The notes under the pieces are model-generated. The model saw only the letters and a list, made by a program, of their open reading frames with translations, ran no database searches and was not told where the DNA came from. A DNA stretch of 62,370 nt, the filler included, from Nemertoderma westbladi (Eukaryota > Animalia > Xenacoelomorpha): NCBI GenBank assembly GCA_032718475.1. It is 3 parts of 3 records of this genome, joined end to end, with 100 filler letters (N's around TTAATTAATTAA, not from the genome) between each part and the next. Parts side by side here need not be neighbours in the genome. Positions count along the whole stretch, not along the records: positions 24,443 to 51,127 come from JAUCBJ010007781.1; 2 more parts are not named here. One strand, given 5' to 3'. Of this stretch, positions 2,203 to 60,141 are shown piece after piece (the first letter of the stretch is position 1; each line of letters begins with the position of its first letter). The translations under genes and the position numbers were made by a program.

Positions 2203-2275
2203 GCCCGGTTAGCTCAGATGGTAGAGCGTGGGACTTTTAATCCTAAGGTCAAGGGTTCAATCCCCTTATCGGGCG
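2203..2275 (+). tRNA. tRNA-Lys (anticodon UUU)
   Basis: GCCCGGTTAGCTCAGATGGTAGAGCGTGGGACTTTTAATCCTAAGGTCAAGGGTTCAATCCCCTTATCGGGCG. Acceptor stem GCCCGGT/ATCGGGC, D stem GCTC/GAGC, anticodon stem TGGGA/TCCTA with loop CTTTTAA, T stem AAGGG/CCCTT. A T-run Pol III terminator follows at ~2279-2287. Confidence 0.95.
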
Positions 2276-24442: not shown

Positions 24443-27400
24443 AGGAATGGGTTTTATAGACGAACATTTACTATAATATCTCGCGCTTATATCTGTAGGA
24501 ATGGGTTTTATAGACGAACATTTACTATAATATCTCGCGCTTATATCTGTAGGAATGGGTTTTATAGACGAACATTTACTATAATATCTCGCGCTTATAT
24601 CTGTAGGAATGGGTTTTATAGACGAACATTTACTATAATATCTCGCGCTTATATCTGTAGGAATGGGTTTTATAGACGAACATTTACTATAATATCTCGC
24701 GCTTATATCTGTAGGAATGGGTTTTATAGACGAACATTTACTATAATATCTCGCGCTTATATCTGTAGGAATGGGTTTTATAGACGAACATTTACTATAA
24801 TATCTCGCGCTTATATCTGTAGGAATGGGTTTTATAGACGAACATTTACTATAATATCTCGCGCTTATATCTGTAGGAATGGGTTTTATAGACGAACATT
24901 TACTATAATATCTCGCGCTTATATCTGTAGGAATGGGTTTTATAGACGAACATTTACTATAATATCTCGCGCTTATATCTGTAGGAATGGGTTTTATAGA
25001 CGAACATTTACTATAATATCTCGCGCTTATATCTGTAGGAATGGGTTTTATAGACGAACATTTACTATAATATCTCGCGCTTATATCTGTAGGAATGGGT
25101 TTTATAGACGAACATTTACTATAATATCTCGCGCTTATATCTGTAGGAATGGGTTTTATAGACGAACATTTACTATAATATCTCGCGCTTATATCTGTAG
25201 GAATGGGTTTTATAGACGAACATTTACTATAATATCTCGCGCTTATATCTGTAGGAATGGGTTTTATAGACGAACATTTACTATAATATCTCGCGCTTAT
25301 ATCTGTAGGAATGGGTTTTATAGACGAACATTTACTATAATATCTCGCGCTTATATCTGTAGGAATGGGTTTTATAGACGAACATTTACTATAATATCTC
25401 GCGCTTATATCTGTAGGAATGGGTTTTATAGACGAACATTTACTATAATATCTCGCGCTTATATCTGTAGGAATGGGTTTTATAGACGAACATTTACTAT
25501 AATATCTCGCGCTTATATCTGTAGGAATGGGTTTTATAGACGAACATTTACTATAATATCTCGCGCTTATATCTGTAGGAATGGGTTTTATAGACGAACA
25601 TTTACTATAATATCTCGCGCTTATATCTGTAGGAATGGGTTTTATAGACGAACATTTACTATAATATCTCGCGCTTATATCTGTAGGAATGGGTTTTATA
25701 GACGAACATTTACTATAATATCTCGCGCTTATATCTGTAGGAATGGGTTTTATAGACGAACATTTACTATAATATCTCGCGCTTATATCTGTAGGAATGG
25801 GTTTTATAGACGAACATTTACTATAATATCTCGCGCTTATATCTGTAGGAATGGGTTTTATAGACGAACATTTACTATAATATCTCGCGCTTATATCTGT
25901 AGGAATGGGTTTTATAGACGAACATTTACTATAATATCTCGCGCTTATATCTGTAGGAATGGGTTTTATAGACGAACATTTACTATAATATCTCGCGCTT
26001 ATATCTGTAGGAATGGGTTTTATAGACGAACATTTACTATAATATCTCGCGCTTATATCTGTAGGAATGGGTTTTATAGACGAACATTTACTATAATATC
26101 TCGCGCTTATATCTGTAGGAATGGGTTTTATAGACGAACATTTACTATAATATCTCGCGCTTATATCTGTAGGAATGGGTTTTATAGACGAACATTTACT
26201 ATAATATCTCGCGCTTATATCTGTAGGAATGGGTTTTATAGACGAACATTTACTATAATATCTCGCGCTTATATCTGTAGGAATGGGTTTTATAGACGAA
26301 CATTTACTATAATATCTCGCGCTTATATCTGTAGGAATGGGTTTTATAGACGAACATTTACTATAATATCTCGCGCTTATATCTGTAGGAATGGGTTTTA
26401 TAGACGAACATTTACTATAATATCTCGCGCTTATATCTGTAGGAATGGGTTTTATAGACGAACATTTACTATAATATCTCGCGCTTATATCTGTAGGAAT
26501 GGGTTTTATAGACGAACATTTACTATAATATCTCGCGCTTATATCTGTAGGAATGGGTTTTATAGACGAACATTTACTATAATATCTCGCGCTTATATCT
26601 GTAGGAATGGGTTTTATAGACGAACATTTACTATAATATCTCGCGCTTATATCTGTAGGAATGGGTTTTATAGACGAACATTTACTATAATATCTCGCGC
26701 TTATATCTGTAGGAATGGGTTTTATAGACGAACATTTACTATAATATCTCGCGCTTATATCTGTAGGAATGGGTTTTATAGACGAACATTTACTATAATA
26801 TCTCGCGCTTATATCTGTAGGAATGGGTTTTATAGACGAACATTTACTATAATATCTCGCGCTTATATCTGTAGGAATGGGTTTTATAGACGAACATTTA
26901 CTATAATATCTCGCGCTTATATCTGTAGGAATGGGTTTTATAGACGAACATTTACTATAATATCTCGCGCTTATATCTGTAGGAATGGGTTTTATAGACG
27001 AACATTTACTATAATATCTCGCGCTTATATCTGTAGGAATGGGTTTTATAGACGAACATTTACTATAATATCTCGCGCTTATATCTGTAGGAATGGGTTT
27101 TATAGACGAACATTTACTATAATATCTCGCGCTTATATCTGTAGGAATGGGTTTTATAGACGAACATTTACTATAATATCTCGCGCTTATATCTGTAGGA
27201 ATGGGTTTTATAGACGAACATTTACTATAATATCTCGCGCTTATATCTGTAGGAATGGGTTTTATAGACGAACATTTACTATAATATCTCGCGCTTATAT
27301 CTGTAGGAATGGGTTTTATAGACGAACATTTACTATAATATCTCGCGCTTATATCTGTAGGAATGGGTTTTATAGACGAACATTTACTATAATATCTCGC

Positions 27401-30400
27401 GCTTATATCTGTAGGAATGGGTTTTATAGACGAACATTTACTATAATATCTCGCGCTTATATCTGTAGGAATGGGTTTTATAGACGAACATTTACTATAA
27501 TATCTCGCGCTTATATCTGTAGGAATGGGTTTTATAGACGAACATTTACTATAATATCTCGCGCTTATATCTGTAGGAATGGGTTTTATAGACGAACATT
27601 TACTATAATATCTCGCGCTTATATCTGTAGGAATGGGTTTTATAGACGAACATTTACTATAATATCTCGCGCTTATATCTGTAGGAATGGGTTTTATAGA
27701 CGAACATTTACTATAATATCTCGCGCTTATATCTGTAGGAATGGGTTTTATAGACGAACATTTACTATAATATCTCGCGCTTATATCTGTAGGAATGGGT
27801 TTTATAGACGAACATTTACTATAATATCTCGCGCTTATATCTGTAGGAATGGGTTTTATAGACGAACATTTACTATAATATCTCGCGCTTATATCTGTAG
27901 GAATGGGTTTTATAGACGAACATTTACTATAATATCTCGCGCTTATATCTGTAGGAATGGGTTTTATAGACGAACATTTACTATAATATCTCGCGCTTAT
28001 ATCTGTAGGAATGGGTTTTATAGACGAACATTTACTATAATATCTCGCGCTTATATCTGTAGGAATGGGTTTTATAGACGAACATTTACTATAATATCTC
28101 GCGCTTATATCTGTAGGAATGGGTTTTATAGACGAACATTTACTATAATATCTCGCGCTTATATCTGTAGGAATGGGTTTTATAGACGAACATTTACTAT
28201 AATATCTCGCGCTTATATCTGTAGGAATGGGTTTTATAGACGAACATTTACTATAATATCTCGCGCTTATATCTGTAGGAATGGGTTTTATAGACGAACA
28301 TTTACTATAATATCTCGCGCTTATATCTGTAGGAATGGGTTTTATAGACGAACATTTACTATAATATCTCGCGCTTATATCTGTAGGAATGGGTTTTATA
28401 GACGAACATTTACTATAATATCTCGCGCTTATATCTGTAGGAATGGGTTTTATAGACGAACATTTACTATAATATCTCGCGCTTATATCTGTAGGAATGG
28501 GTTTTATAGACGAACATTTACTATAATATCTCGCGCTTATATCTGTAGGAATGGGTTTTATAGACGAACATTTACTATAATATCTCGCGCTTATATCTGT
28601 AGGAATGGGTTTTATAGACGAACATTTACTATAATATCTCGCGCTTATATCTGTAGGAATGGGTTTTATAGACGAACATTTACTATAATATCTCGCGCTT
28701 ATATCTGTAGGAATGGGTTTTATAGACGAACATTTACTATAATATCTCGCGCTTATATCTGTAGGAATGGGTTTTATAGACGAACATTTACTATAATATC
28801 TCGCGCTTATATCTGTAGGAATGGGTTTTATAGACGAACATTTACTATAATATCTCGCGCTTATATCTGTAGGAATGGGTTTTATAGACGAACATTTACT
28901 ATAATATCTCGCGCTTATATCTGTAGGAATGGGTTTTATAGACGAACATTTACTATAATATCTCGCGCTTATATCTGTAGGAATGGGTTTTATAGACGAA
29001 CATTTACTATAATATCTCGCGCTTATATCTGTAGGAATGGGTTTTATAGACGAACATTTACTATAATATCTCGCGCTTATATCTGTAGGAATGGGTTTTA
29101 TAGACGAACATTTACTATAATATCTCGCGCTTATATCTGTAGGAATGGGTTTTATAGACGAACATTTACTATAATATCTCGCGCTTATATCTGTAGGAAT
29201 GGGTTTTATAGACGAACATTTACTATAATATCTCGCGCTTATATCTGTAGGAATGGGTTTTATAGACGAACATTTACTATAATATCTCGCGCTTATATCT
29301 GTAGGAATGGGTTTTATAGACGAACATTTACTATAATATCTCGCGCTTATATCTGTAGGAATGGGTTTTATAGACGAACATTTACTATAATATCTCGCGC
29401 TTATATCTGTAGGAATGGGTTTTATAGACGAACATTTACTATAATATCTCGCGCTTATATCTGTAGGAATGGGTTTTATAGACGAACATTTACTATAATA
29501 TCTCGCGCTTATATCTGTAGGAATGGGTTTTATAGACGAACATTTACTATAATATCTCGCGCTTATATCTGTAGGAATGGGTTTTATAGACGAACATTTA
29601 CTATAATATCTCGCGCTTATATCTGTAGGAATGGGTTTTATAGACGAACATTTACTATAATATCTCGCGCTTATATCTGTAGGAATGGGTTTTATAGACG
29701 AACATTTACTATAATATCTCGCGCTTATATCTGTAGGAATGGGTTTTATAGACGAACATTTACTATAATATCTCGCGCTTATATCTGTAGGAATGGGTTT
29801 TATAGACGAACATTTACTATAATATCTCGCGCTTATATCTGTAGGAATGGGTTTTATAGACGAACATTTACTATAATATCTCGCGCTTATATCTGTAGGA
29901 ATGGGTTTTATAGACGAACATTTACTATAATATCTCGCGCTTATATCTGTAGGAATGGGTTTTATAGACGAACATTTACTATAATATCTCGCGCTTATAT
30001 CTGTAGGAATGGGTTTTATAGACGAACATTTACTATAATATCTCGCGCTTATATCTGTAGGAATGGGTTTTATAGACGAACATTTACTATAATATCTCGC
30101 GCTTATATCTGTAGGAATGGGTTTTATAGACGAACATTTACTATAATATCTCGCGCTTATATCTGTAGGAATGGGTTTTATAGACGAACATTTACTATAA
30201 TATCTCGCGCTTATATCTGTAGGAATGGGTTTTATAGACGAACATTTACTATAATATCTCGCGCTTATATCTGTAGGAATGGGTTTTATAGACGAACATT
30301 TACTATAATATCTCGCGCTTATATCTGTAGGAATGGGTTTTATAGACGAACATTTACTATAATATCTCGCGCTTATATCTGTAGGAATGGGTTTTATAGA

Positions 30401-33400
30401 CGAACATTTACTATAATATCTCGCGCTTATATCTGTAGGAATGGGTTTTATAGACGAACATTTACTATAATATCTCGCGCTTATATCTGTAGGAATGGGT
30501 TTTATAGACGAACATTTACTATAATATCTCGCGCTTATATCTGTAGGAATGGGTTTTATAGACGAACATTTACTATAATATCTCGCGCTTATATCTGTAG
30601 GAATGGGTTTTATAGACGAACATTTACTATAATATCTCGCGCTTATATCTGTAGGAATGGGTTTTATAGACGAACATTTACTATAATATCTCGCGCTTAT
30701 ATCTGTAGGAATGGGTTTTATAGACGAACATTTACTATAATATCTCGCGCTTATATCTGTAGGAATGGGTTTTATAGACGAACATTTACTATAATATCTC
30801 GCGCTTATATCTGTAGGAATGGGTTTTATAGACGAACATTTACTATAATATCTCGCGCTTATATCTGTAGGAATGGGTTTTATAGACGAACATTTACTAT
30901 AATATCTCGCGCTTATATCTGTAGGAATGGGTTTTATAGACGAACATTTACTATAATATCTCGCGCTTATATCTGTAGGAATGGGTTTTATAGACGAACA
31001 TTTACTATAATATCTCGCGCTTATATCTGTAGGAATGGGTTTTATAGACGAACATTTACTATAATATCTCGCGCTTATATCTGTAGGAATGGGTTTTATA
31101 GACGAACATTTACTATAATATCTCGCGCTTATATCTGTAGGAATGGGTTTTATAGACGAACATTTACTATAATATCTCGCGCTTATATCTGTAGGAATGG
31201 GTTTTATAGACGAACATTTACTATAATATCTCGCGCTTATATCTGTAGGAATGGGTTTTATAGACGAACATTTACTATAATATCTCGCGCTTATATCTGT
31301 AGGAATGGGTTTTATAGACGAACATTTACTATAATATCTCGCGCTTATATCTGTAGGAATGGGTTTTATAGACGAACATTTACTATAATATCTCGCGCTT
31401 ATATCTGTAGGAATGGGTTTTATAGACGAACATTTACTATAATATCTCGCGCTTATATCTGTAGGAATGGGTTTTATAGACGAACATTTACTATAATATC
31501 TCGCGCTTATATCTGTAGGAATGGGTTTTATAGACGAACATTTACTATAATATCTCGCGCTTATATCTGTAGGAATGGGTTTTATAGACGAACATTTACT
31601 ATAATATCTCGCGCTTATATCTGTAGGAATGGGTTTTATAGACGAACATTTACTATAATATCTCGCGCTTATATCTGTAGGAATGGGTTTTATAGACGAA
31701 CATTTACTATAATATCTCGCGCTTATATCTGTAGGAATGGGTTTTATAGACGAACATTTACTATAATATCTCGCGCTTATATCTGTAGGAATGGGTTTTA
31801 TAGACGAACATTTACTATAATATCTCGCGCTTATATCTGTAGGAATGGGTTTTATAGACGAACATTTACTATAATATCTCGCGCTTATATCTGTAGGAAT
31901 GGGTTTTATAGACGAACATTTACTATAATATCTCGCGCTTATATCTGTAGGAATGGGTTTTATAGACGAACATTTACTATAATATCTCGCGCTTATATCT
32001 GTAGGAATGGGTTTTATAGACGAACATTTACTATAATATCTCGCGCTTATATCTGTAGGAATGGGTTTTATAGATGAACATTTACTATAATATCTCGCGC
32101 TTATATCTGTAGGAATGGGTTTTATAGACGAACATTTACTATAATATCTCGCGCTTATATATGTAGGAATGAGTTTTATAGACGAACATTTACTATAATA
32201 TCTCGCGCTTATATATGTAGGAATGAGTTTTATAGACGAACATTTACTATAATATCTCGCGCTTATATCTGTAGGAATGAGTTTTATAGACGAACATTTA
32301 CTATAATATCTCGCGCTTATATCTGTAGGAATGGGTTTTATAGACGAACATTTACTATAATATCTCGCGCTTATATCTGTAGGAATGGGTTTTATAGACG
32401 AACATTTACTATAATATCTCGCGCTTATATCTGTAGGAATGGGTTTTATAGACGAACATTTACTATAATATCTCGCGCTTATATATGTAGGAATGGGTTT
32501 TATAGACGAACATTTACTATAATATCTCGCGCTTATATCTGTAGGAATGGGTTTTATAGACGAACATTTACTATAATATCTCGCGCTTATATCTGTAGGA
32601 ATGGGTTTTATAGACGAACATTTACTATAATATATCGCGCTTATATCTGTAGGAATGGGTTTTATAGGCGAACATTTACTATAATATCTCGCGCTTATAT
32701 ATGTAGGAATATGGGTTTTATAGAGGAACATTTACTATAATATCTCGCGCTTATATCTGTAGGAATGGGTTTTATAGACGAACATTTACTATAATATCTC
32801 GCGCTTATATCTGTAGGAATGGGTTTTATAGACGAACATTTACTATAATATCTCGCGCTTATATATGTAGGAATGGGTTTTATAGACGAACATTTACTAT
32901 AATATCTCGCGCTTATATCTGTAGGAATGGGTTTTATAGACGAACATTTACTATAATATCTCGCGCTTATATCTGTAGGAATGGGTTTTATAGACGAACA
33001 TTTACTATAATATATCGCGCTTATATCTGTAGGAATGGGTTTTATAGGCGAACATTTACTATAATATCTCGCGCTTATATATGTAGGAATGGGTTTTATA
33101 GACGAACATTTACTATAATATCTCGCGCTTATATCTGTAGGAATGGGTTTTATAGACGAACATTTACTATAATATCTCGCGCTTATATCTGTAGGAATGG
33201 GTTTTATAGACGAACATTTACTATAATATATCGCGCTTATATCTGTAGGAATGGGTTTTATAGGCGAACATTTACTATAATATCTCGCGCTTATATCTGT
33301 AGGAATGGGTTTTATAGACGAACATTTACTATAATATCTCGCGCTTATATCTGTAGGAATGGGTTTTATAGACGAACATTTACTATAATATCTCGCGCTT

Positions 33401-33596
33401 ATATCTGTAGGAATGGGTTTTATAGACGAACATTTACTATAATATCACGCGCTTATATCTGTAGGAATGGGTTTTATAGACAAACATTTACTATAATATC
33501 TCGCGCTTATATCTGTAGGAATGGGTTTTATAGACGAACATTTACTATAATATCTCGCGCTTATATATGTAGGAATGGGTTTTATAGACGAACATT
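24443..33596. repeat. 54-bp satellite (AGGAATGGGTTTTATAGACGAACATTTACTATAATATCTCGCGCTTATATCTGT)n, ~170 copies
   Basis: Direct reading. Apparently invariant until ~32070, then point variants. It explains the 2778-aa ORF with an 18-aa period. Confidence 0.98.
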
Positions 33597-34105: not shown

Positions 34106-37100
34106 ATCAAAATATATTTAACTAGTGATCCCAGTAACAGTGGGGCCCTGTTAGCTCCATCTCAATATATCAAAATATATTTAACTAGTGATCCCAGTAA
34201 CAGTGGGGCCCTGTTAGCTCCATCTCAATATATCAAAATATATTTAAATAGAATCCCAGTAACAGTGGAGCCCTGTTAGCTCCATCTCAATATATCAAAA
34301 TATATTTAAATAGTGATCCCAGTAACAGTGGAGCCCTGTTAGCTCCATCTCAATATATCAAAATATATTTAAATAGAATCCCAGTAACAGTGGAGCCCTG
34401 TTAGCTCCACCTCAATATATCAAAATATATTTAAATAGTGATCCCAGTAACAGTGGGGCCCTGTTAGCTCCATCTCAATATATCAAAATATATTTAAATA
34501 GAATCCCAGTAACAGTGGGGCCCTGTTAGCTCCATCTCAATATATCAAAATATATTTAAATAGTGATCCCAGTAACAGTGGGGCCCTGTTAGCTCCATCT
34601 CAATATATCAAAATATATTTAAATAGAATCCCAGTAACAGTGGGGCCCTGTTAGCTCCATCTCAATATATCAAAATATATTTAAATAGTGATCCCAGTAA
34701 CAGTGGAGCCCTGTTAGCTCCATCTCAATATATCAAAATATATTTAAATAGTGATCCCAGTAACAGTGGGGCCCTGTTAGCTCCATCTCAATATATCAAA
34801 ATATATTTAACTAGTGATCCCAGTAACAGTGAGACCCTGTTAGCTCCATCTCAATATATCAAAATATATTTAAATAGAATCCCAGTAACAGTGGAGCCCT
34901 GTTAGCTCCATCTCAATATATCAAAATATATTTAAATAGTGATCCCAGTAACAGTGGGGCCCTGTTAGCTCCATCTCAATATATCAAAATATATTTAACT
35001 AGTGATCCCAGTAACAGTGAGACCCTGTTAACTCCATCTCAATATATCAAAATATATTTAACTAGTGATCCCAGTAACAGTGGGGCCCTGTTAGCTCCAT
35101 CTCAATATATCAAAATATATTTAAATAGTGATCCCAGTAACAGTGGGGCCCTGTTAGCTCCATCTCAATATATCAAAATATATTTAACTAGTGATCCCAG
35201 TAACGGTGGGGCCCTGTTAGCTCCATCTCAATATATCAAAATATATTTAAATAGAATCCCAGTAACAGTGGAGCCCTGTTAGCTCCATCTCAATATATCA
35301 AAATATATTTAAATAGTGATCCCAGTAACAGTGGGGCCCTGTTAGCTCCATCTCAATATATCAAAATATATTTAACTAGTGATCCCAGTAACAGTGAGAC
35401 CCTGTTAACTCCATCTCAATATATCAAAATATATTTAACTAGTGATCCCAGTAACAGTGGGGCCCTGTTAGCTCCATCTCAATATATCAAAATATATTTA
35501 AATAGTGATCCCAGTAACAGTGGGGCCCTGTTAGCTCCATCTCAATATATCAAAATATATTTAAATAGTGATCCCAGTAACAGTGGGGCCCTGTTAGCTG
35601 CATCTCAATATATCAAAATATATTTAACTAGTGATCCCAGTAACAGTGAGACCCTGTTAGCTCCATCTCAATATATCAAAATATATTTAACTAGTGATCC
35701 CAGTAACAGTGGGGCCCTGTTAGCTCCATCTCAATATATCAAAATATATTTAAATAGTGATCCCAGTAACGGTGGGGCCCTGTTAGCTCCATCTCGATAT
35801 ATCAAAATATATTTAACTAGTGATCCCAGTAACGGTGGGGCCCTGTTAGCTCCATCTCAATATATCAAAATATATTTAAATAGTGATCCCAGTAACGGTG
35901 GGGCCCTGTTAGCTCCATCTCGATATATCAAAATATATTTAACTAGTGATCCCAGTAACGGTGGGGCCCTGTTAGCTCCATCTCAATATATCAAAATATA
36001 TTTAAATAGTGATCTCAGTAACAGTGGGGCCCTGTTAGCTCCATCTCAATATATCAAAATATATTTAACTAGTGATCCCAGTAACGGTGGGGCCCTGTTA
36101 GCTCCATCTCAATATATCAAAATATATTTAAATAGTGATCCCAGTAACAGTGAGACCCTGTTAGCTCCATCTCAATATATCAAAATATATTTAACTAGTG
36201 ATCCCAGTAACGGTGGGGCCCTGTTAGCTCCATCTCAATATATCAAAATATATTTAACTAGTGATCCCAGTAACGGTGGGGCCCTGTTAGCTCCATCTCA
36301 ATATATCAAAATATATTTAAATAGTGATCCCAGTAACAGTGGGGCCCTGTTAGCTCCATCTCAATATATCAAAATATATTTAACTAGTGATCCCAGTAAC
36401 AGTGGGGCCCTGTTAGCTCCATCTCAATATATCAAAATATATTTAAATAGTGATCCCAGTAACAGTGGGGCCCTGTTAGCTCCATCTCAATATATCAAAA
36501 TATATTTAACTAGTGATCCCAGTAACAGTGGGGCCCTGTTAGCTCCATCTCAATATATCAAAATAAATTTAACTAGTGATCCCAGTAACAGCGGGGCCCT
36601 GTTAGCTCCATCTCAATATATCAAAATATATTTAAATTGTGATCCCAGTAACAGTGGGGCCCTGTTAGCTCCATCTCAATATATCAAAATATATTTAACT
36701 AGTGATCCCAGTAACAGTGGGGCCCTGTTAGCTCCATCTCAATATATCAAAATATATTTAAATAGTGATCCCAGTAACAGTGGGGCCCTGTTAGCTCCAT
36801 CTCAATATATCAAAATATATTTAAATAGAATCCCAGTAACAGTGGAGCCCTGTTAGCTCCATCTCAATATATCAAAATATATTTAAATAGAATCCCAGTA
36901 ACAGTGGAGCCCTGTTAGCTCCATCTCAATATATCAAAATATATTTAAATAGTGATCCCAGTAACAGTGGGGCCCTGTTAGCTCCATCTCAATATATCAA
37001 AATATATTTAAATAGAATCCCAGTAACAGTGGGGCCCTGTTAGCTCCATCTCAATATATCATAATATATTTAAATAGTGATCCCAGTAACAGTGGGGCCC

Positions 37101-40100
37101 TGTTAGCTCCATCTCAATATATCAAAATATATTTAAATAGAATCCCAGTAACAGTGGAGCCCTGTTAGCTCCATCTCAATATATCAAAATATATTTAACT
37201 AGTGATCCCAGTAACGGTGGGGCCCTGTTAGCTCCATCTCAATATATCAAAATATATTTAAATAGTGATCCCAGTAACAGTGAGACCCTGTTAGCTCCAT
37301 CTCAATATATCAAAATATATTTAACTAGTGATCCCAGTAACAGTGGGGCCCTGTTAGCTCCATCTCAATATATCAAAATATATTTAAATAGTGATCCCAG
37401 TAACGGTGGGGCCCTGTTAGCTCCATCTCAATATATCCAAATATATTTAACTAGTGATCCCAGTAACGGTGGGGCCCTGTTAGCTCCATCTCAATATATC
37501 AAAATATATTTAAATAGTGATCCCAGTAACAGTGAGACCCTGTTAGCTCCATCTCAATATATCAAAATATATTTAACTAGTGATCCCAGTAACGGTGGGG
37601 CCCTGTTAGCTCCATCTCAATATATCAAAATATATTTAACTAGTGATCCCAGTAACGGTGGGGCCCTGTTAGCTCCATCTCAATATATCAAAATATATTT
37701 AAATAGTGATCCCAGTAACAGTGGGGCCCTGTTAGCTCCATCTCAATATATCAAAATATATTTAACTAGTGATCCCAGTAACAGTGGGGCCCTGTTAGCT
37801 CCATCTCAATATATCAAAATATATTTAAATAGTGATCCCAGTAACAGTGGGGCCCTGTTAGCTCCATCTCAATATATCAAAATATATTTAACTAGTGATC
37901 CCAGTAACAGTGGGGCCCTGTTAGCTCCATCTCAATATATCAAAATAAATTTAACTAGTGATCCCAGTAACAGCGGGGCCCTGTTAGCTCCATCTCAATA
38001 TATCAAAATATATTTAAATTGTGATCCCAGTAACAGTGGGGCCCTGTTAGCTCCATCTCAATATATCAAAATATATTTAACTAGTGATCCCAGTAACAGT
38101 GGGGCCCTGTTAGCTCCATCTCAATATATCAAAATATATTTAAATAGTGATCCCAGTAACAGTGGGGCCCTGTTAGCTCCATCTCAATATATCAAAATAT
38201 ATTTAAATAGAATCCCAGTAACAGTGGAGCCCTGTTAGCTCCATCTCAATATATCAAAATATATTTAAATAGAATCCCAGTAACAGTGGAGCCCTGTTAG
38301 CTCCATCTCAATATATCAAAATATATTTAAATAGTGATCCCAGTAACAGTGGGGCCCTGTTAGCTCCATCTCAATATATCAAAATATATTTAAATAGAAT
38401 CCCAGTAACAGTGGGGCCCTGTTAGCTCCATCTCAATATATCATAATATATTTAAATAGTGATCCCAGTAACAGTGGGGCCCTGTTAGCTCCATCTCAAT
38501 ATATCAAAATATATTTAAATAGAATCCCAGTAACAGTGGAGCCCTGTTAGCTCCATCTCAATATATCAAAATATATTTAAATAGTGATCCCAGTAACAGT
38601 GGGGCCCTGTTAGCTCCATCTCGATATATCAAAATATATTTAAATAGAATCCCAGTAACAGTGGGGCCCTGTTAGCTCCATCTCGATATATCAAAATATA
38701 TTTAAATAGTGATCCCAGTAACAGTGGGGCCCTGTTAGCTCCATCTCAATATATCAAAATATATTTAAATAGAATCCCAGTAACAGTGGAGCCCTGTTAG
38801 CTCCATCTCAATATATCAAAATATATTTAAATAGTGATCCCAGTAACAGTGGGGCCCTGTTAGCTCCATCTCAATATATCAAAATATATTTAAATAGTGA
38901 TCCCAGTAACAGTGAGACCCTGTTAGCTCCATCTCAATATATCAAAATATATTTAAATAGTGATCCCAGTAACAGTGGGGCCCTGTTAGCTCCATCTCAA
39001 TATATCAAAATATATTTAACTAGTGATCCCAGTAACGGTGGGGCCCTGTTAGCTCCATCTCAATATATCAAAATATATTTAACTAGTGATCCCAGTAACG
39101 GTGGGGCCCTGTTAGCTCCATCTCAATATATCAAAATATATTTAAATAGTGATCCCAGTAACAGTGGGGCCCTGTTAGCTCCATCTCAATATATCAAAAT
39201 ATATTTAACTAGTGATCCCAGTAACAGTGGGGCCCTGTTAGCTCCATCTCAATATATCAAAATATATTTAAATAGTGATCCCAGTAACAGTGGGGCCCTG
39301 TTAGCTCCATCTCAATATATCAAAATATATTTAACTAGTGATCCCAGTAACAGTGGGGCCCTGTTAGCTCCATCTCAATATATCAAAATAAATTTAACTA
39401 GTGATCCCAGTAACAGCGGGGCCCTGTTAGCTCCATCTCAATATATCAAAATATATTTAAATAGTGATCCCAGTAACAGTGGGGCCCTGTTAGCTCCATC
39501 TCAATATATCAAAATATATTTAACTAGTGATCCCAGTAACAGTGGGGCCCTGTTAGCTCCATCTCAATATATCAAAATATATTTAAATAGTGATCCCAGT
39601 AACAGTGGGGCCCTGTTAGCTCCATCTCAATATATCAAAATATATTTAAATAGAATCCCAGTAACAGTGGAGCCCTGTTAGCTCCATCTCAATATATCAA
39701 AATATATTTAAATAGAATCCCAGTAACAGTGGAGCCCTGTTAGCTCCATCTCAATATATCAAAATATATTTAAATAGTGATCCCAGTAACAGTGGCGCCC
39801 TGTTAGCTCCATCTCAATATATCAAAATATATTTAAATAGAATCCCAGTAACAGTGGGGCCCTGTTAGCTCCATCTCAATATATCAAAATATATTTAAAT
39901 AGTGATCCCAGTAACAGTGGGGCCCTGTTAGCTCCATCTCAATATATCAAAATATATTTAAATAGAATCCCAGTAACAGTGGAGCCCTGTTAGCTCCATC
40001 TCAATATATCAAAATATATTTAAATAGTGATCCCAGTAACAGTGGGGCCCTGTTAGCTCCATCTCGATATATCAAAATATATTTAAATAGAATCCCAGTA

Positions 40101-40506
40101 ACAGTGGAGCCCTGTTAGCTCCATCTCGATATATCAAAATATATTTAAATAGTGATCCCAGTAACAGTGGGGCCCTGTTAGCTCCATCTCAATATATCAA
40201 AATATATTTAAATAGAATCCCAGTAACAGTGGAGCCCTGTTAGCTCCATCTCAATATATCAAAATATATTTAAATAGAATCCCAGTAACAGTGGAGCCCT
40301 GTTAGCTCCATCTCAATATATCAAAATATATTTAAATAGTGATCCCAGTAACAGTGGGGCCCTGTTAGCTCCATCTCAATATATCAAAATATATTTAAAT
40401 AGAATCCCAGTAACAGTGGAGCCCTGTTAGCTCCATCTCAATATATCAAAATATATTTAAATAGAATCCCAGTAACAGTGGAGCCCTGTTAGCTCCATCT
40501 CAATAT
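34106..40506. repeat. 62/63-bp satellite (ATCAAAATATATTTAACTAGTGATCCCAGTAACAGTGGGGCCCTGTTAGCTCCATCTCAATAT)n, ~100 copies
   Basis: Direct reading. Variant units recur in higher-order blocks. Each unit has an internal hairpin TAACAG-N7-CTGTTA. Confidence 0.97.
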
Positions 40507-40940
40507 ACTACTACTAGGTCGAGCGAACTCGGACAGTGGAAATGAGATCCTTCCAGGCTTCGTGATTCTCCATAGTTGTCGCAATTTCGTTTCTCCTAAG
40601 TTCAGTATCCCTTTCAAGTTGATCTATATAAGTTATGGCTGGTCGTCCACGACTACGCTTTTCATGAGTTGGTTGCCAGAAAAGTAGATCTGGTAAGACC
40701 TCGTCTTTACTTCGCCAGCAGTGCCCACTGAATCTTAATCTGCGTTCACCTAGGGTGGTTGATACAGGTGGTATTGTACCATAAAGCTCGGCGTTTGTCA
40801 TGTGTTGTCTCCAGCTGATGTTTAGGGCTGCCCTTAGTAGTCTTGTGTAGCAACAATCAATTCGTTGTTCGAGTGATTTAGTCAGTGTCCAGGTCTCACC
40901 CCCATATAAAAATGGGCAGCTTTCTATTGGCACCATCAAA
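40507..40940 (-). mobile_element. Severely 5'-truncated RTE-clade LINE (second family)
   Basis: ORF 40514-40939 has LYGGETWTLT, CYTRLLRAALNISW, RRLRFSGHCWR, WQPTH..RSRGRP, the RTE RT C-terminus. The stop codon is the first unit of a (TAG)n tail abutting the 63-bp satellite. Confidence 0.9.
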
Positions 40941-40989
40941 TCACTAGAAGGTTGAAGAATAACTGTAGTGTAACTGGTGAAATATCACC

Positions 40990-41188
40990 AGAGACACCTT
41001 TTTTAAACGCTTGTAGCTAAAGAATGAAAGCAAAAATAAAAATTCTGGCTCACCCAGCAAGGAGGAGGGAGGTTAAACTATCTCTGTTTCAAATTTCATG
41101 CAATCTCATTAAGATTTGTAGAAAAATTTGGGGGGGGGGGGGGTGGCAGGTACCTGAATAACGACACTATATTCCAGGACATGGTGTA
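40990..41188. mobile_element. Terminal fragment of a TA-flanked MITE related to 43659-44497
   Basis: AAGATTTGTAGAAAAATTTG-polyG...GACACTATATTCCAGGACATGGTG-TA resembles the right TIR of the 43659-44497 element. Confidence 0.6.
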
Positions 41189-41530: not shown

Positions 41531-41994
41531 GTAAGAATGATAACTCTTATTCCAATTGACCTCACCAAAAGCCATGCGAGCACCATTAAATTAGATAGAA
41601 ACGGCATAAAAAAACTGAAGATCTTGTCGTTGTTTGCCATCTTATTAATTTCATTAAATTTTACTGGGGGGGGGGGTGGTACTAGTGTAACCCGTGTCAC
41701 CATTATTCTGCCTTTGTATAGTTGTTTTCTAGCTGTTTTGGCTATTGATTTATGTTCTGGGGCCGGTTGCATAGAACCGACTTATCTCTAAGTTCGAATT
41801 AACTTTAAGATAAGTCCATTACGTTAACTAAGTCAGTTGCAAAAAATTATTAAAATGTAAGTGGGACTTAAATATATAACTTACCTTAAGTGCGATAAGT
41901 TTCACTTAAAATCTGAGAACGGCCTAGGGTTTATATAGTTGGGATAGCAACACTAAGCTTATTGAAGTAATATTGTGGTTTTGTTCAGAAATTG

Positions 41995-42097
41995 AAAAAA
42001 TTAGATAGCGCGTCACCGGGGGTTGAACCAGCGCTATACGTATGTTTCAGCCTATCAGGCCTCATCAGTAGCGCTAACCAGTTCAGCCACTTGCCCC
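41995..42097 (-). ncRNA. Pol III-type small RNA unit containing a type I hammerhead ribozyme
   Basis: Minus strand: GGGGCAAG-TGGCTGAACTGG (box A)-TT-AGCGCTA-CTGATGA-GGCCTGATAGGCT-GAAA-C-ATAC-GTA-TAGCGCT-GGTTCAACCCC (box B)-CGGTGACGCGCTATCTAA-TTTTTT. Stem I AGCGCTA/TAGCGCT, stem II GGCCT/AGGCT, minimal stem III, GUA cleavage triplet. Confidence 0.8.
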
Positions 42098-42200
42098 TGA
42101 CAATTCACTATCCCACCTAATCCACTTCTATTGAACAGGCAGTCTTAAGTTGCATATCCTATGGAGTAATAGAAGTTTCAGTTGGGAATCGATGTCTTAG

Positions 42201-43340
42201 TACAAACAATAGCGCAAAAGCAATAAAAAATATTTTAATAGTCCGAAACGTTTCGATATATTAACTTTATATCATCATCAGTGGAGTTACAAATAAACAA
42301 AAAAACTGTAAACTAGATTAATACAAGTTGGTATTAATCTAGTTTACACTAGATCTAGTTTACTTTATATCACCATCAGTGGAGTTACAAATAAACAAAA
42401 AAACTGTAAACTAGATTAATACAAGTTGGTATTAATCTAGTTTACACTAGATCTAGTTTACTTTATATCACCATCAGTGGAGTTACAAATAAACAAATTA
42501 AAGTTAAATTTAAAACTGTAAACTAGATTAATACAAGTTGGTATTAATCTAGTTTACACTAGATCTAGTTTACTTTATATCACCATCAGTGGAGTTACAA
42601 ATAAACAAATTAAAGTTAAATTTAAATTTAAAACTGTAAACTAGATTAATACAAGTTGGTATTAATCTAGTTTACACTAGATCTAGTTTACTTTATATCA
42701 CCATCAGTGGAGTTACAAATAAACAAAAAAACTGTAAACTAGATTAATACAAGTTGGTATTAATCTAGTTTACACTAGATCTAGTTTACTTTATATCACC
42801 ATCAGTGGAGTTACAAATAAACAAATTAAAGTTAAATTTAAAACTGTAAACTAGATTAATACAAGTTGGTATTAATCTAGTTTACACTAGATCTAGTTTA
42901 CTTTATATCACCATCAGTGGAGTTACAAATAAACAAATTAAAGTTAAATTTAAATTTAAAACTGTAAACTAGATTAATACAAGTTGGTATTAATCTAGTT
43001 TACACTAGATCTAGTTTACTTTATATCACCATCAGTGGAGTTACAAATAAACAAATTAAAGTTAAATTTAAAACTGTAAACTAGATTAATACAAGTTGGT
43101 ATTAATCTAGTTTACACTAGATCTAGTTTACTTTATATCACCATCAGTGGAGTTACAAATAAACAAATTAAAGTTAAATTTAAAACTGTAAACTAGATTA
43201 ATACAAGTTGGTATTAATCTAGTTTACAGTTTTTTTGTTTATTTGTAACTCCACTGATGGTGATATAAAGTTAATATATCGAAACGTTTCGGACTATTAA
43301 AATATAATTTATTGCTATTGCTATTGCGCTATTGTTAGTA
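42201..43340. mobile_element. Penelope-like (PLE) pseudo-LTR inverted structure with minimal hammerheads and internal tandem amplification
   Basis: Outer arms are reverse complements. The left arm (minus strand, 42240-42286) reads CCA-CTGATGA-T-GATATA-AAGTTAA-TATATC-GAAACGTTTC-GGA. The right arm (43249-43295, +) has CTGATGG. Nine 98-118-bp palindrome-containing units lie between them. Confidence 0.65.
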
Positions 43341-43658
43341 GTGTTCAGGGAGCCAAATACAGTATGCTGTGACACCGGTATACTATTGACCAACTATACC
43401 TCTACAATCGACATACCTACCTCCACTATCATTCCAATTTTTACATTTTCAATACACTAATACACAGTAAAACAGAGTCAGAAAGATGGATATAGCATAC
43501 TGTAGGATAGTGACTGATAACAACCTCGGCCTGCGGCCTCCGTAATAATACAGGATAATTTGCTTCTGGAACGGCATCAGTGATTATTCAGTTTTATTCG
43601 CTTCAGGTTATTATTTCCGTATATTAACTCTAGAACATTGCGATATTGTATGTATATA

Positions 43659-44497
43659 CACCATGTCCCGTAATATAATGTCATTTTCTGATGACATGGA
43701 CCCCCCCCCCCAAATTTTTCTACAAATCTTTATCATATTGCTTGAAATTTGAAACACAACTAGTTCCACTCACCGTCGTTGACCCCATGAAGCCGGAATT
43801 TTCGATTTCGCCTTTAATTTTTTTTAATGAGCGTTTTAAAAAAAGTCACATCATTAGAAAGCATGCGTTGCAAGGATTCCAAATATGTAACAATATATGA
43901 ATTTCGTTGAGAAACAACTGAGATATAGGTGTTCAAAGATTGCAAGAAGTATCGTTCGCTAGATGCCATTTACTCTTTATTAAATTAACAATGTTCTGGA
44001 ACATTTAGTTTAAGTATGAATAGCTACGCAATAGATATATTGGATAGGAATACCGCTGTTGCCCACCAACTCATAAAATAAACAACACATTCTAGAATTT
44101 TGTGTATTTATTAGATAGAATAAATGGCCTTCAGCGAAGGATAATTATTGCAATCTTCGAACGCCTATATCTCAGCTGTTTCTCAACGAAATTCATATAT
44201 TGTTTCATATTTGGAATCCTTGCAACGCAAGCTATTTAATGATATGAAAAAATACGACTAATGTGAAGAATGGCCACGATACGGAGGGTGCGATTTCGCA
44301 AAAGACACTTTTTTAAAACGCTTATTAAAGAAATTTAAAGGCGAAATCGAAAATTCCGGCTTCATGGTAACAACCACGGTGAGGGGAACTAGTTGTGTTT
44401 CAAATTTCAAGCAATATGATAAAGATTTGTAGAAAAATCTGGGGGGGGGGGGGGGTCCGTGTCATCAGAAAATGACACTATATTACGGTTCGTGGTG
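43659..44497. mobile_element. Foldback MITE with long TIRs and TA target duplication (Tc1/mariner-type target)
   Basis: TA|CACCATGTCCCGTAATATAATGTCATTTTCTGATGAC... mirrored by ...GTCATCAGAAAATGACACTATATTACGGTTCGTGGTG|TA. Inverted similarity extends over >300 bp. Confidence 0.88.
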
Positions 44498-44619
44498 TAA
44501 ATTGTTCCTTCATCGTAACCTCATTGCGTTTTAACCCTTTGAAGATTGACCGGAGGCAATAATTAGCAGTAGCAGTAGCATTTTCGAGATAGTGTTTTAC
44601 CATACAACTGCAGTATATG

Positions 44620-48012: not shown

Positions 48013-49947
48013 ATGATATTGTTGCGTATTCTACGACTTTCAACTAAACCCCGCGGAATGGCTTCCTTTTCCGCTTGTTGCAATAAATCCACCACGGAGA
48101 ATAAAACCTTGGAGACGCTGAACTTCGACAACCGGGCCTTAAAACTCCTCCCGTTGGACCCGGTAACCGATAACTACGTGCGAACTGTGAGGGAGGCGTG
48201 TTTCTCCTTGGTGGACCCCACCCCGGTAGAGAACCCTCGACTGGTTGCCGCGTCGCCCCAAGCCATGTCGCTCCTCGAACTCCCTCCGTCGGAGGTCCGA
48301 CGGCCGGAGTTCCTCCGCTACTTCTCCGGGAACGCGAAGCTGCCGGGTTCCCGCACAGCCGCGCACTGCTACTGCGGCCATCAGTTCGGCCACTTCTCGG
48401 GCCAGTTGGGCGACGGTTGCGCGATCTACCTCGGGGAGTTGCTCAACTCGAAGGGCGAGCGGTGGGAGATTCAGTTGAAGGGCGCGGGAATGACGCCCTA
48501 CAGTCGGCAGGCGGATGGCCGGAAGGTGCTCCGCTCCTCCATCCGGGAGTTCCTCTGCTCGGAGGCGATGCACGGCCTCGGGATCCCGACGACTCGCGCG
48601 GGTTGTTGCGTCGTCGCAGACACCCGCGTACTCCGGGACGTCTTCTACGACGGACATCCCGCCACCGAACCCGTCGCTCTCGTGCTGCGTGTAGCCCCGT
48701 CATTCCTCCGATTTGGTTCCTTCGAGATCTTTAAACCGCAGGACCGGTTCACAGGCCGCGCGGGGCCGTCTGTCGGTCGGACCGCCGTGTTCGACAAGCT
48801 CTTTGACTACGTCGTCGCCACATTCTTCCCGGAGTCTCTCCGGAGCGCTCCGACCGACCGCCGGGCCCAATGCCGCTCCGTGTTCCGACGGATATCGGAG
48901 ACGACGGCCCGTCTGGTCGCCGCCTGGCAGTCCGTCGGTTTCTGCCACGGCGTGTTGAATACCGACAACATGTCGCTTCTCGGACTCACTATAGACTACG
49001 GCCCCTTCGGGTTCCTCGACGTCTACGAGGCCGGACACGTCTGCAACGCGTCGGACACCAACGGGAGGTACGCGTACGACCAGCAGCCCACCGTCTGTAG
49101 ATGGAACGTGGAGCGACTGGGGGAGGCTTTGCGACCGTTGCTGGGCGAGGGCGAGGCCGCTGAGGCGGTGGGAGCCTTCGACGAGGAGTACAAACGGGAG
49201 TACCTGCGGAGGATGAGGGGGAAGTTGGGGTTGGTTGTGGAGCGGGAGACGGACGGGGAGCTGGTCGCTGTGCTGCTCCGGACGATGGAGGCCACCGGGG
49301 CCGACTTCACCAACACCTTCCGGAGACTGGCGGACATTCCGATTCCGGGGGTCCCCGACTATCCGACGACCTTCCCACGCGGCGTCCGCGGGATCCTTGC
49401 GCAATGCGCCAGTCTCGAGGAACTCCGCAGACGGTCTCGGCCGTCCATGGAGGAGGCCGAGTTGGCCACGCTCGTACAACTCGCGCGCACGCAGCCCCAA
49501 CTGCTCGCTATGCTCGGCGGCAGTGTCGCCAAGCTGGACAGCGAGTTGGGGAAGTTGGAGAGGAGTCGGGAGCTGGAGGGGATGTCGGCGGACGCGAAAG
49601 GGGAGCGGGATCGGGAGCGGTGGGAGCAGTGGTTGTCGGCGTACACGGAGCGGCTGCGGGTGGAGGTTGGGGAGCGGGACCCCCGGGAGGTTGGGGCGGA
49701 GCGACGGCGGTTGATGGAGGCGAGCAACCCGCGGTTCGTGCTGCGGAACTACATCGCCCAGAGGGCCATCGACGCGGCCGAGCGGGGGGATTACTCGGAG
49801 GTGGAGAGAGTGCTGGAGGCGCTGGCGGACCCGTACGGGGGGGAGACCGGGGTAGACGAGACTGCTGGCGCCTCTAGCGGCCCTGTACCGTACGACTCGA
49901 GACCGCCGCTGATTTCCCTTGATCTACGCGTCAGCTGATCTTCCTAG
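48013..49947 (+). CDS. SELENOO: Selenoprotein O (pseudokinase protein adenylyltransferase/AMPylase), single exon, Sec at TGA 49936-49938
   Basis: Motifs AHCYCGHQFG, QLGDG, QLKGAG.TPYSRQADGRKVLRSSIREFLCSEAM, RFGSFE, GFCHGVLNTDNMS, IDYGPFGF, DFTNTFR, NPRFVLRNYIAQ. The 3' end GTC AGC TGA TCT TCC TAG reads V-S-U-S-S-stop, matching the USS/CSS terminus of the family. The Arg/Leu-rich N-terminus resembles a mitochondrial presequence. Confidence 0.96.
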
Positions 49948-57539: not shown

Positions 57540-60141
57540 TTATCCACACCACGTTTAGAACTCATGGCTTGCAGCTTGCATTCTTGGTGCAAACTTTGCC
57601 AGTCATATGATTAGGAAGTTATTTATACCAAAGCAAATCGTTTTATGGAGTGATTCAATGCGTGCCTTACAATGGATACGTGGTGGTGCAACAAAACGTG
57701 ATGTATTTGTAGCAAATCGAGTTGAGTCAATTACGAATAATACAGATCCTCACCAATGGCATCATGTGCCTTCTGAATTAAATCCTGCGGATATCCCTTC
57801 TAGGGGATGTGATCTTATTAAACTTACTACAAATAACTTTTACAAACATGGTCCATCATTCTTGCAAGAACCAGAATATTTGTGGCCTTCTGAACCAACT
57901 TCCCCTCCACAACTTTTGATAACCGACTCTCAACAATTAAATTCATTTTCAGAGTGTAATTTAATTTCCATTCCTTCATACTCCAGGCTCTCGAAACCTG
58001 TTCGGGTATTGTCCTGATAAAGCGTTTTATTCATAACGCCCACAACCCAAAAGATAAGATAGTGGGTAATCTTTACTATTTTGAGCTTCGTAAGTCTCTG
58101 CATTTCCTTATTCTGTTTGAGCAACATTTGTTTTTCCAATGTGAAATTAATTCTCTGAAATGTAAAATGAATGGTTCTGTATCTCCCGCTTCTTCTATTC
58201 ATAAACTTCACCCCATTATTCATAATGACCTACTAGTTATGTCACCATGTACTGGCGAACCATATCTAATAATATTGCCAAAGCGAAGTCATTTAACGAA
58301 ATTAATTGCTATGGACTACCATTGTGAATTAATGCATCAAGGACCAGATGCGACATTAGCCCAAATTAGAACAAAATATTGGATTCCTGGTGGCCGTTCG
58401 TTCACTGGTGCGCCAAATGATTCATAAATGTAATGCATGTAAACGCTATCATGCCCTACCATATAAGGCTCCCGCATCAGAGTTGCAACCATTTCGACGT
58501 CAAGCTATTATTGCTCCTTTCATAGTTTCTGGAATGGAACATTTTGGCCCTATTTATGTAACAGGAGGTGAAAAAGCAGAGTGTCTTCTCTTCACATGTT
58601 CCTCTACACGAGATAAACATCTAGAACTTGTCGATAATTGTTCAACTCGTGGAACATATTTAGCTATGCGGAGATTTCTTTCATTGAGAGTACCTCCCTT
58701 TACTCATATAAGTGTCCACTCAGATAATGCAAAGGCATTCCATGCATTATCGTCCATGAAATTTCCAAATCACACTGTTACTCATCATTTTATACCAGCA
58801 CGTTCACCCCATTGGGGAGGCTGGTGGGAGAGAATGGTTCGTGTTGTAAAAACTTGTCTACGAATAACTTTCCACAAACGTCTATTTACAAAGGCTGAAC
58901 TTCGAGCTATTTTAATAGAAGTTGCAGCTGTTGTTAACATGAAACCAATTACTCCTACTACCTCGTTTGATATCAGTGATGATGCCTGTTTAACGCCCAG
59001 CCATTTCCTATATGGTATTCCTCCACCTGACAATGTTTTGGATTATCATGCCTGTAATGTTGATTCAACTACACTTCGAAAAAGTCTTCTATCACGAGAT
59101 CTAATATCTAGGCGTATTTGGAAAGCCTGGAGTGATAAATATTTGGCAGAACTACGTACATGGAATACTAAGGTGTCACCGTCATATCTACCAAAAGTGG
59201 GGGATATTGTTCTTGTAAAAGAATCTTCACCTCGAGGGAAATGGCCATTAGCACATGTAACCAAAATATTTCCAGGACGTGATAACATTCCCCGAGCTGC
59301 AGAAATTAAACTTCATGGAAAAACTCTATCCAGGTCAATACATCTCGTATTTCCTTTGGAAACTGATGTTAATGGTTTGAATGTGTCTCCTGAAACATCT
59401 ACTCAGAATTGTGGGGGTATTGATCAGTGGGTACTTTTGCACTTTAGGTCCCCACCCCTAGATTTTTTGTGTGTGTGTTTTTTATGCAAATTACACTACT
59501 ACAAGGTTAGTGTGACTATCTAGGAACATTTTTGGTATAAAAAATGTTAGATTATGTTGCACCCCCGATCAACCCTAACCCAAAACAAAAAGGTTTATTT
59601 ATTTATTTTTATTTAAAATAGTCAAGCGTTAAATCATTTTATGTAATTAAATAGCTAAAAAAAAGTACCGGTAAATTTATTTAATAAAATAGAATTCCTT
59701 GACATCGCTGAAAAATGCCTCCATCTTGTTCAGCTTTGTTTTATTTTTTTCCCTCCACATGAACTCGATGAGATAACTTTCTAGCAGTAGTCTATGAGTT
59801 CCGCATTCTCTCTTGTTTCGTTTCTTTGCACGCATCCACATATTCTCCACTGACTGCGTATGAGCTCCAGTGTCAGGATCAACGAAATTTTTGCTGTGGT
59901 TGACTGTCTCGTGATGTTCTCAGATAATGCTATTCATATTCTAGAACATAATAATATTATGTTTCCTTGATATAAAAAAATCTGGGTGGTGGGGACCTAA
60001 AGTGCAAAAGTACCGACCGATCAGTGTGCTCTACGCATCATTGGTAATCCAACCACTCCAGTTGATATGCCGTGCATTACTGACCCTCCTAAATCGAATT
60101 ATACCACTAGGTATGGACGTACTGTGAAACCACCTAAGTGA
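57540..60141 (+). pseudogene. Frameshifted BEL/Pao pol remnant (RNase H-integrase)
   Basis: ORFs 57607-58017, 58062-58427 and 58390-59429. After removing the Merlin insertion the frame continues to TRYGRTVKPPK-stop (60139-60141). Confidence 0.85.
59430..60018 (-). mobile_element. Merlin (IS1595/ISXO2-like) DNA transposon deletion derivative
   Basis: TIRs GGTACTTTTGCACTTTAGGTCCCCACC / GGTGGGGACCTAAAGTGCAAAAGTACC with 8-bp TSD GATCAGTG (59422-59429, 60019-60026). Minus strand 59677-59919 encodes HETVNHSKNFVDPDTGAHTQSVENMWMRAK...YLIEFMWR, the Merlin transposase C-terminus. Confidence 0.9.

Follow-up and report, generated by a model that had tools for sequence, protein, structure and literature searches.

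A hammerhead ribozyme between tRNA-type promoter boxes in a mobile, high-copy repeat of Nemertoderma westbladi, a probable non-LTR retrozyme

The minus strand of a 62,370-nucleotide stretch of Nemertoderma westbladi DNA (the window; three parts of assembly GCA_032718475.1 joined end to end) contains a complete type I hammerhead between a tRNA-type A box and B box, in an inserted copy of a very abundant, protein-free and young repeat family. The element is mobile, and the insertion is flanked by a 7-bp target duplication. The hammerhead motif appears to take the place of the anticodon and variable arms between the two promoter boxes. We consider it probable that the family is a young, high-copy, protein-free non-LTR retrozyme, in which a tRNA-type promoter is split by the hammerhead and which is copied via a self-cut RNA circle of ~220 bases.

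The coordinates of box A, the hammerhead, box B and the T6 run on the minus strand were all re-checked and agree with those of a first-pass annotation of this DNA (Table 1). As read from the sequence, the motif has the CUGANGA, GAAA and NUH elements of the core and three putative helices, and it ends in helix I. It is the only strict hammerhead found by a pattern scan of the whole window. None of 100 simulated windows contained a hammerhead with at least 7 bp in stem I and at least 5 bp in stem II, and looser criteria produced one match in 100 simulated windows. In 400,000 shuffles, box A was found upstream of the core in 884 cases and box B downstream in 96, and the joint rate gives a chance of ~5e-7 for both boxes flanking a fixed core. 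The boxes are spaced 48 nt apart, and the only other pair of A and B boxes in the window is that of a tRNA-Lys gene. The T6 run, located at a terminator-like distance after the boxes, is the sole run of at least four T residues on the minus strand of the copy.

Table 1. Coordinates of the inserted copy and of its ribozyme, promoter and fold features (positions along the window)
Feature	Position	Strand	Evidence or remark
Left 7-bp target duplication, AGTAATA	41966–41972		Loose ends before 41967
Inserted copy, 192 bp, truncated on the 5′ side	41973–42164	−	Empty-site joint, depth jump, loose ends
Predicted long rod, hammerhead at tip	41986–42130	−	42130–42106 pairs with 42010–41986
T6 run, candidate Pol III terminator	41995–42000	−	Also paired within the predicted rod
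Pol III box B	42019–42029	−	Full consensus match; predicted partner of box A in distal stem I
Type I hammerhead (stem I of 7 bp, core, stem II of 4–5 bp, GAAA, short helix III, GUA)	42030–42075	−	Motif and fold
Hammerhead stem I	42075–42069 / 42036–42030	−	
Hammerhead core CUGAUGA	42068–42062	−	
Hammerhead stem II	42061–42057 / 42053–42049	−	
Hammerhead GAAA	42048–42045	−	
Helix III, 2 bp in the window copy, AUAC loop	42038–42045	−	With the family letter at 42043, a perfect 8-nt palindrome
GUA cleavage triplet	42039–42037	−	Cut predicted between 42037 and 42036
Pol III box A	42078–42089	−	Full match to consensus
Two extra bases at the 5′ junction	42163–42164	−	Family contigs diverge behind 42162; target resumes at 42165
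Right 7-bp target duplication, AGTAATA	42165–42171		The 7 letters fit either side of the joint

The locus was also considered as a tRNA gene, and this reading was rejected. The acceptor stem of the box A/B region has only two of seven pairs (one Watson–Crick and one G.U), and the locus is therefore not a tRNA, as the first-pass annotation had already concluded from the unpaired acceptor stem. A 3-bp D-stem can form between box A and 42075–42073 and three of five T-stem pairs are possible, but forcing the D and T arms costs 8.4 kcal/mol. Neither Rfam nor ARAGORN recognized a cloverleaf, and ARAGORN reported no tRNA at the locus. The Rfam scan, which had been proposed as a check on the hammerhead, returned no hammerhead or tRNA match there at the gathering score, nor any among the 37 matches with E ≤ 10.

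The predicted cut separates box A from box B, in line with the earlier proposal that cleavage would part the two promoter halves. Because of this position of the cut, the promoter would be permuted in a linear monomer and restored only by copying across the junction. In the window copy itself, the 8-nt palindrome of helix III contains two A.C mismatches; modelled as a monomer, helix III has a pair probability of 0.01 and the active hammerhead fold lies 2.9 kcal/mol above the minimum free energy. This copy is likely to be a dead end because its helix III has decayed and it contains only one ribozyme, and it could at most make an RNA of ~104 nt.

An empty-site joint, found in three (X1, X2 and X3) of four public runs and representing two samples from two studies, connects 41965 directly to 42165 and thus skips 199 bases, i.e. 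the 192 bases of the copy plus 7 (values: side, 55; both, 7; tagged ‘between: not known’). Together with AGTAATA on both sides, this joint shows that the copy is a 192-bp insertion with a 7-bp duplication, of which an empty-site version exists. In the contigs behind the variant table, 42165–42190 has no cover, which would fit absence of the insertion from those samples, although lack of cover proves nothing. Loose ends before 41967 were found in 25, 28, 35 and 4 contigs of X1, X2, X3 and X4, respectively. Other copies match up to 41967, so that six of the seven duplication bases (41967–41972) equal the family sequence; this 6-nt match is likely to represent priming microhomology. The two extra bases at the other junction are likely to be untemplated. 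The insertion has 75 nt ahead of box A and about 65 nt ahead of the predicted Pol III start; it then crosses the predicted cut site and finishes 22 nt beyond the T6 run. Its GC content is 45% and its longest ATG-initiated ORF encodes 26 amino acids. No second copy of the element is present in the window, where the 192-bp copy stands alone.

Family copies are known from DNA contigs of the four runs. Contigs less than 80% alike were left out, and variants are depth-weighted and unlinked. The numbers of contigs matched to the element region were 1,961, 1,380, 1,199 and 85 in X1, X2, X3 and X4, respectively. Summed depth in X1 is 44,000–301,000 over 41968–42149, compared with 107–436 and 311–611 in the nearest flanks. 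Summed depth is itself no copy number, and the rough bounds derived from it are 400–12,500 copies; the high depth and the 1,846 distinct X1 contigs together point to at least hundreds of copies. In the contigs, many copies carry the boxes and the hammerhead together, and no joint removing the hammerhead alone (box A joined to box B) was present among the 15 of 33 and 15 of 25 joints listed. The suggestion in the first-pass annotation of a mobile ribozyme family is supported.

Copies that continue beyond 42162 share sequence there (21–31 contigs per run, agreement 0.53–0.57). One X1 contig joins 42162 to 41977, tail to head, over 34 letters, which agree with the opening of the consensus built from loose ends behind 42162 in X1, X2 and X3. 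The unit is therefore about 220–227 nt and able to stand head to tail. This tandem junction was seen in one contig of the 1,846 in X1 (depth 25.7) and is among the 12 of 17 ‘between’ rows listed; 12 of 25 rows were listed in the other set. Many contigs leave the element into unlike flanks near 41967–41981 (agreement 0.45–0.69), with ends varying between copies. The agreement of only 0.45–0.57 among loose ends indicates that many copies are dispersed.

The minus strand is predicted to fold into a long rod with the hammerhead at its tip. Over a 151-nt stretch, picked after seeing the fold, the value is −49.1 (z −2.6) with G.U in 9 of 51 pairs, against −34.9 (z −2.0) for the plus strand; the z-score is weak for the whole copy (−1.61) and for the first test of 121 nt (−0.75). 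The statistical support that a single modelled sequence lends to the rod is thus modest. Family letters were then compared pair by pair with the fold of the window copy rather than as a full folded consensus. All five letters with a majority in the three runs of the variant table add or keep pairs: those at 41993 and 42002 close G-C pairs, that at 42049 changes G.U to G-C and strengthens stem II, that at 42043 (91–99% of depth) makes helix III a perfect palindrome, and that at 42006, with a common G at 42110, would give G.U where the window copy has U-A, both letters being read from unlinked variants. Of the 13 common variants in X1 and X3, three break a pair, compared with a simulated mean of 7.5 (P = 0.005), and two of these three are the partners 42006 and 42110. 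None lies in the core, box B or T6, but with only 13 variable sites the absence from the core carries no significance by itself. The predicted energy of helix III in a dimer is −9.8 kcal/mol for the family majority, −8.8 for the variant at 42041 (pair kept via G.U) and −2.1 for the window copy. Decay is more pronounced in X4 (84 contigs), where 9 of the 27 variants disrupt pairs of the window copy and three fall in the core, at 7–9%. A subfamily is represented by one X4 contig of depth 1108: four bases are inserted next to the core and position 42035 is changed, which would displace stem I. Variants at 42014 and 42016, whose depth matches, would recreate one pair in the acceptor stem and one in the T stem. 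Family letters also favour a helix in which the T6 region pairs with sequence lying ahead of the predicted start, and since one side of this helix lies outside the start-to-T6 segment, the conserved fold needs an RNA longer than ~100 nt.

These fold data bear on the role of the promoter boxes. An extension of stem I across a GGUU bulge, which had been proposed earlier, is recovered in the predicted fold (42085–42080 with 42024–42029), where the pairing between box A and box B has probabilities of 0.71–0.96. It is possible, although we lean against it, that both boxes were inherited from an ancestral tRNA or tRNA-SINE and now persist mainly through this mutual pairing, with Pol II transcribing the element from outside. 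The pairing of T6 within the rod is compatible with such an origin, and in a young family the lack of box variants says little. On the other hand, both boxes fit the consensus fully, and T6 lies where a terminator would be expected. Box B has no variant at ≥6% in any of three runs and none is listed for T6 at that level, while the one common variant in box A, at 42082, falls on a degenerate purine position of the consensus. This alternative concerns the promoter only and overlaps the retrozyme reading.

The start of the copy ~65 nt upstream of the Pol III start, its passage beyond T6 and its spanning of the cut make a circle or multimer the likely template. A start-to-T6 Pol III RNA or a cut-to-cut linear monomer would be unable to template the copy, whereas circular, multimeric or longer uncleaved RNA could do so. 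The last of these would be used by a dispersed, SINE-like passenger with fixed ends, made from an uncleaved linear RNA of ~225 nt, with a slow or dispensable hammerhead and no circle. The many exits into unlike flanks and the single tail-to-head contig are what such a passenger would leave, and in the Penelope element PAc unprocessed RNA is reported as the dominant insertion substrate in vitro (PMC11167929). This explanation is nevertheless unlikely: Pol III starting near 42100 would leave out at least 65 nt upstream, the family keeps its palindromic helix III, and no A-tail was found on the copy, whose best match to the LINE pieces of this window is 9 nt.

Tandem or dispersed, the element is best compared with known short repeats that carry either a ribozyme or an internal promoter. 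Internal A and B boxes, a T-run, target duplication and high copy number characterize tRNA-derived SINEs, and all of these are found in the present element. It differs from SINEs in that its 5′ end is not located at the Pol III start: upstream DNA travels along, and other copies reach even beyond the start of the window copy. Furthermore, it carries neither an A-rich nor, as judged against the LINE pieces of the window, a LINE-derived 3′ tail, and a ribozyme fills the spacer between the boxes.

In published descriptions, animal non-LTR retrozymes have units of 150–450 bp (220–240 bp in corals), a GC content below 50% and target duplications of more than 4 bp (PMC7229834), and occur as solo monomers beside multimers, with circularization by RtcB and mobilization by Penelope or LINE enzymes proposed (PMC7229834; bioRxiv 10.64898/2026.07.22.740005), the latter work linking retrozymes to Penelope elements. 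The type I hammerhead, unit size, non-coding nature, GC content and duplication length of the present element all fit this description. Pol III is mentioned 0 times in the main texts of these two papers, which do not take up how retrozymes are transcribed, and neither ‘promoter’ nor ‘tRNA’ is present in the main text of the bioRxiv paper. The closest known element is schistosome Sm-alpha. Sm-alpha and Sj-alpha of Schistosoma are likewise described as short, non-coding, high-copy repeats combining a tRNA-derived Pol III promoter with a type I hammerhead (PMC6765202, PMC2770079 and PMC8490949). Because promoter plus hammerhead is thus known from schistosomes, the present element is not a new class. 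In Sm-alpha, the reported order is ‘a promoter followed by a hammerhead’, which leaves the promoter at the 3′ end of cleaved RNAs (PMC6765202). The present element departs from this order: its ribozyme is nested between box A and box B, the two boxes contribute to the putative stem I, and the predicted cut splits the promoter.

Penelope elements share further features with the present family, including type I hammerheads with a minimal helix III in their terminal repeats (PMC4209133) and, for PAc, reverse transcription starting inside the RNA and AT-rich targets; PAc, however, is reported to start on RNA without homology to the cut DNA, whereas the window copy shows the 6-nt match (PMC11167929). 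Could the copy be a pLTR, the terminal repeat of a protein-coding Penelope-like element with a tRNA-type promoter of its own? The hammerheads of Penelope terminal repeats and the presence of a Penelope-type minimal hammerhead ~75 bp from the copy would agree with this, but with the tail-to-head contig the unit is closed at about 220 nt, the hammerhead is canonical and not of the minimal type with a long helix II, and the repeat unit contains no ORF. No RT plus GIY-YIG ORF adjoining the copy was recognized in the window, nor any Penelope ORF among the window ORFs of at least 120 amino acids (inspected by eye, with 5 of 58 scanned against Pfam). We therefore regard a pLTR as quite improbable. 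The Penelope-type hammerhead itself is located at 42281 on the minus strand, with an inverted copy at 43254 on the plus strand whose core carries one change, and about eight units of a ~112-bp palindrome-rich repeat built from the 5′ half of the hammerhead lie between them; the region 42200–43340 is likely to be a Penelope terminal-repeat remnant.

The first-pass annotation had favoured a self-cleaving Pol III RNA of ~100 nt, or a SINE-like retrozyme, as the element and mobile unit. Neither an RNA of that size nor a plain SINE is supported as the mobile unit. Box A, box B and T6 are indeed placed as in a Pol III gene and such an RNA may be made, yet it cannot be the template of the window copy: the 192-bp insertion and the unit of about 220–227 nt extend well past both of its ends, and family letters support pairing outside it, which leaves this proposal very little room. 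Least credible of all is a MITE or Helitron-like, non-autonomous DNA transposon in which an RNA rod is only mimicked by internal inverted repeats, since the 7-bp duplication and a plus strand that also folds better than shuffles are outweighed by ends that vary between copies, strand-biased and G.U-rich pairing, an intact ribozyme core and the lack of visible terminal inverted repeats at the copy ends, including among the 25 longest of 47 inverted pairs.

For the retrozyme reading, which we prefer, the following cycle can be envisaged. Tandem units would be transcribed through, either from an external start or by Pol III initiating at the internal boxes and reading past T6. Neighbouring hammerheads would pair via the palindromic helix III, short palindromes of this kind being associated with the dimer type of hammerhead cleavage (PMC4209133), and would then cut after GUA, yielding a cut-to-cut monomer with box B at its 5′ end and box A at its 3′ end. 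Stem I would hold the monomer ends together for an RtcB-type ligase, and ligation would restore the order A–hammerhead–B in the circle. A retrotransposon enzyme of the Penelope or LINE type may then prime inside the circle at a nicked, AT-rich target, copying from a circle into a target being a step proposed in the Discussion of PMC7229834 (Cervera and de la Pena 2020). In the window insertion, 190 nt would have been copied, stopping short of one full round. The T6 run is the main difficulty for Pol III-driven multimers and speaks against them: being retained, it would end a Pol III transcript ahead of the second ribozyme.

More tentatively, and with considerable doubt, the element may be a tRNA gene turned into a self-promoting RNA replicon by a hammerhead that replaced the anticodon arm. 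The ribozyme would take over the task of the tRNA splicing endonuclease by making its cut between the D arm and the T arm, and would present tRNA-half-like ends to RtcB. An intact promoter would exist only in DNA that had been copied across the ligated junction, so that selection would favour insertion templated by a circle, and the start-to-T6 RNA may act in trans as a dimer partner that lets longer transcripts cut. Such a history would offer a route from a tRNA gene to a viroid-like RNA circle. The family may also serve as a compact case, at ~220 nt, for the transcription of animal retrozymes, with a tRNA promoter built around the ribozyme, and its junctions (internal priming, 7-bp duplication and cut site spanned) may be read as the mark left in the genome by copying of a circular or multimeric template.

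No description of a hammerhead nested between A and B boxes was found in the open literature as screened by title and start of abstract, Repbase, Dfam, subscription journals and supplements lying outside this scope. Pattern scans covered viral contigs (39 of 64 parts, plus one complete scan), metagenome contigs (15 of 64 parts) and prokaryote genomes (one scan with 0 matches and another over 19 of 64 parts). None of the 387 loci obtained combines a pairing hammerhead with both boxes, and none of the first 267 gave a BLAST match to the element; because these collections hold few animals, the scans say little on distribution. One metagenome contig (L128) contains a pair of nearly identical type I hammerheads in inverted orientation that lack A and B boxes and are likely to be a Penelope or retrozyme end in animal DNA.

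The window contains several other features. The tRNA-Lys(TTT) gene (2203–2275, plus strand) is preceded by a 29-bp duplication overlapping its 5′ end, and its box B region differs from that of the element at 1 of 12 bases. LINE-type RT fragments (Pfam RVT_1) at 6128–8048 and 8904–10824 on the minus strand are interrupted by a 37-bp minisatellite; the two stretches, 2,776 bp apart, have identical translations and may reflect recent duplication or an artefact of assembly. Another LINE-like 3′ piece is located at 40514–40984. Long inverted repeats of 58, 143 and 131 nt (89–94%) at 43654–44502 form a MITE-like palindromic element, with a related arm at 41076–41188. A broken LTR-retrotransposon remnant with integrase-like sequence and DUF5641, perhaps of the BEL/Pao type, occupies 57559–59523 on the plus strand. 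An intronless selenoprotein O gene (48013–49938, plus strand) has a GC content of 64% in a background of ~35% and ends in an in-frame TGA two codons before the stop, which likely encodes selenocysteine. Its product is 48–55% identical to the 120 listed relatives, the named ones being animals, and a quick tree with 41 rows, including 40 relatives hand-picked from the 120, left its position unsettled. Two satellites were also identified, one of 54 bp with 169.5 copies (24443–33596, 99% matches) and one of 63 bp with 102 copies (34106–40507, 96% matches).
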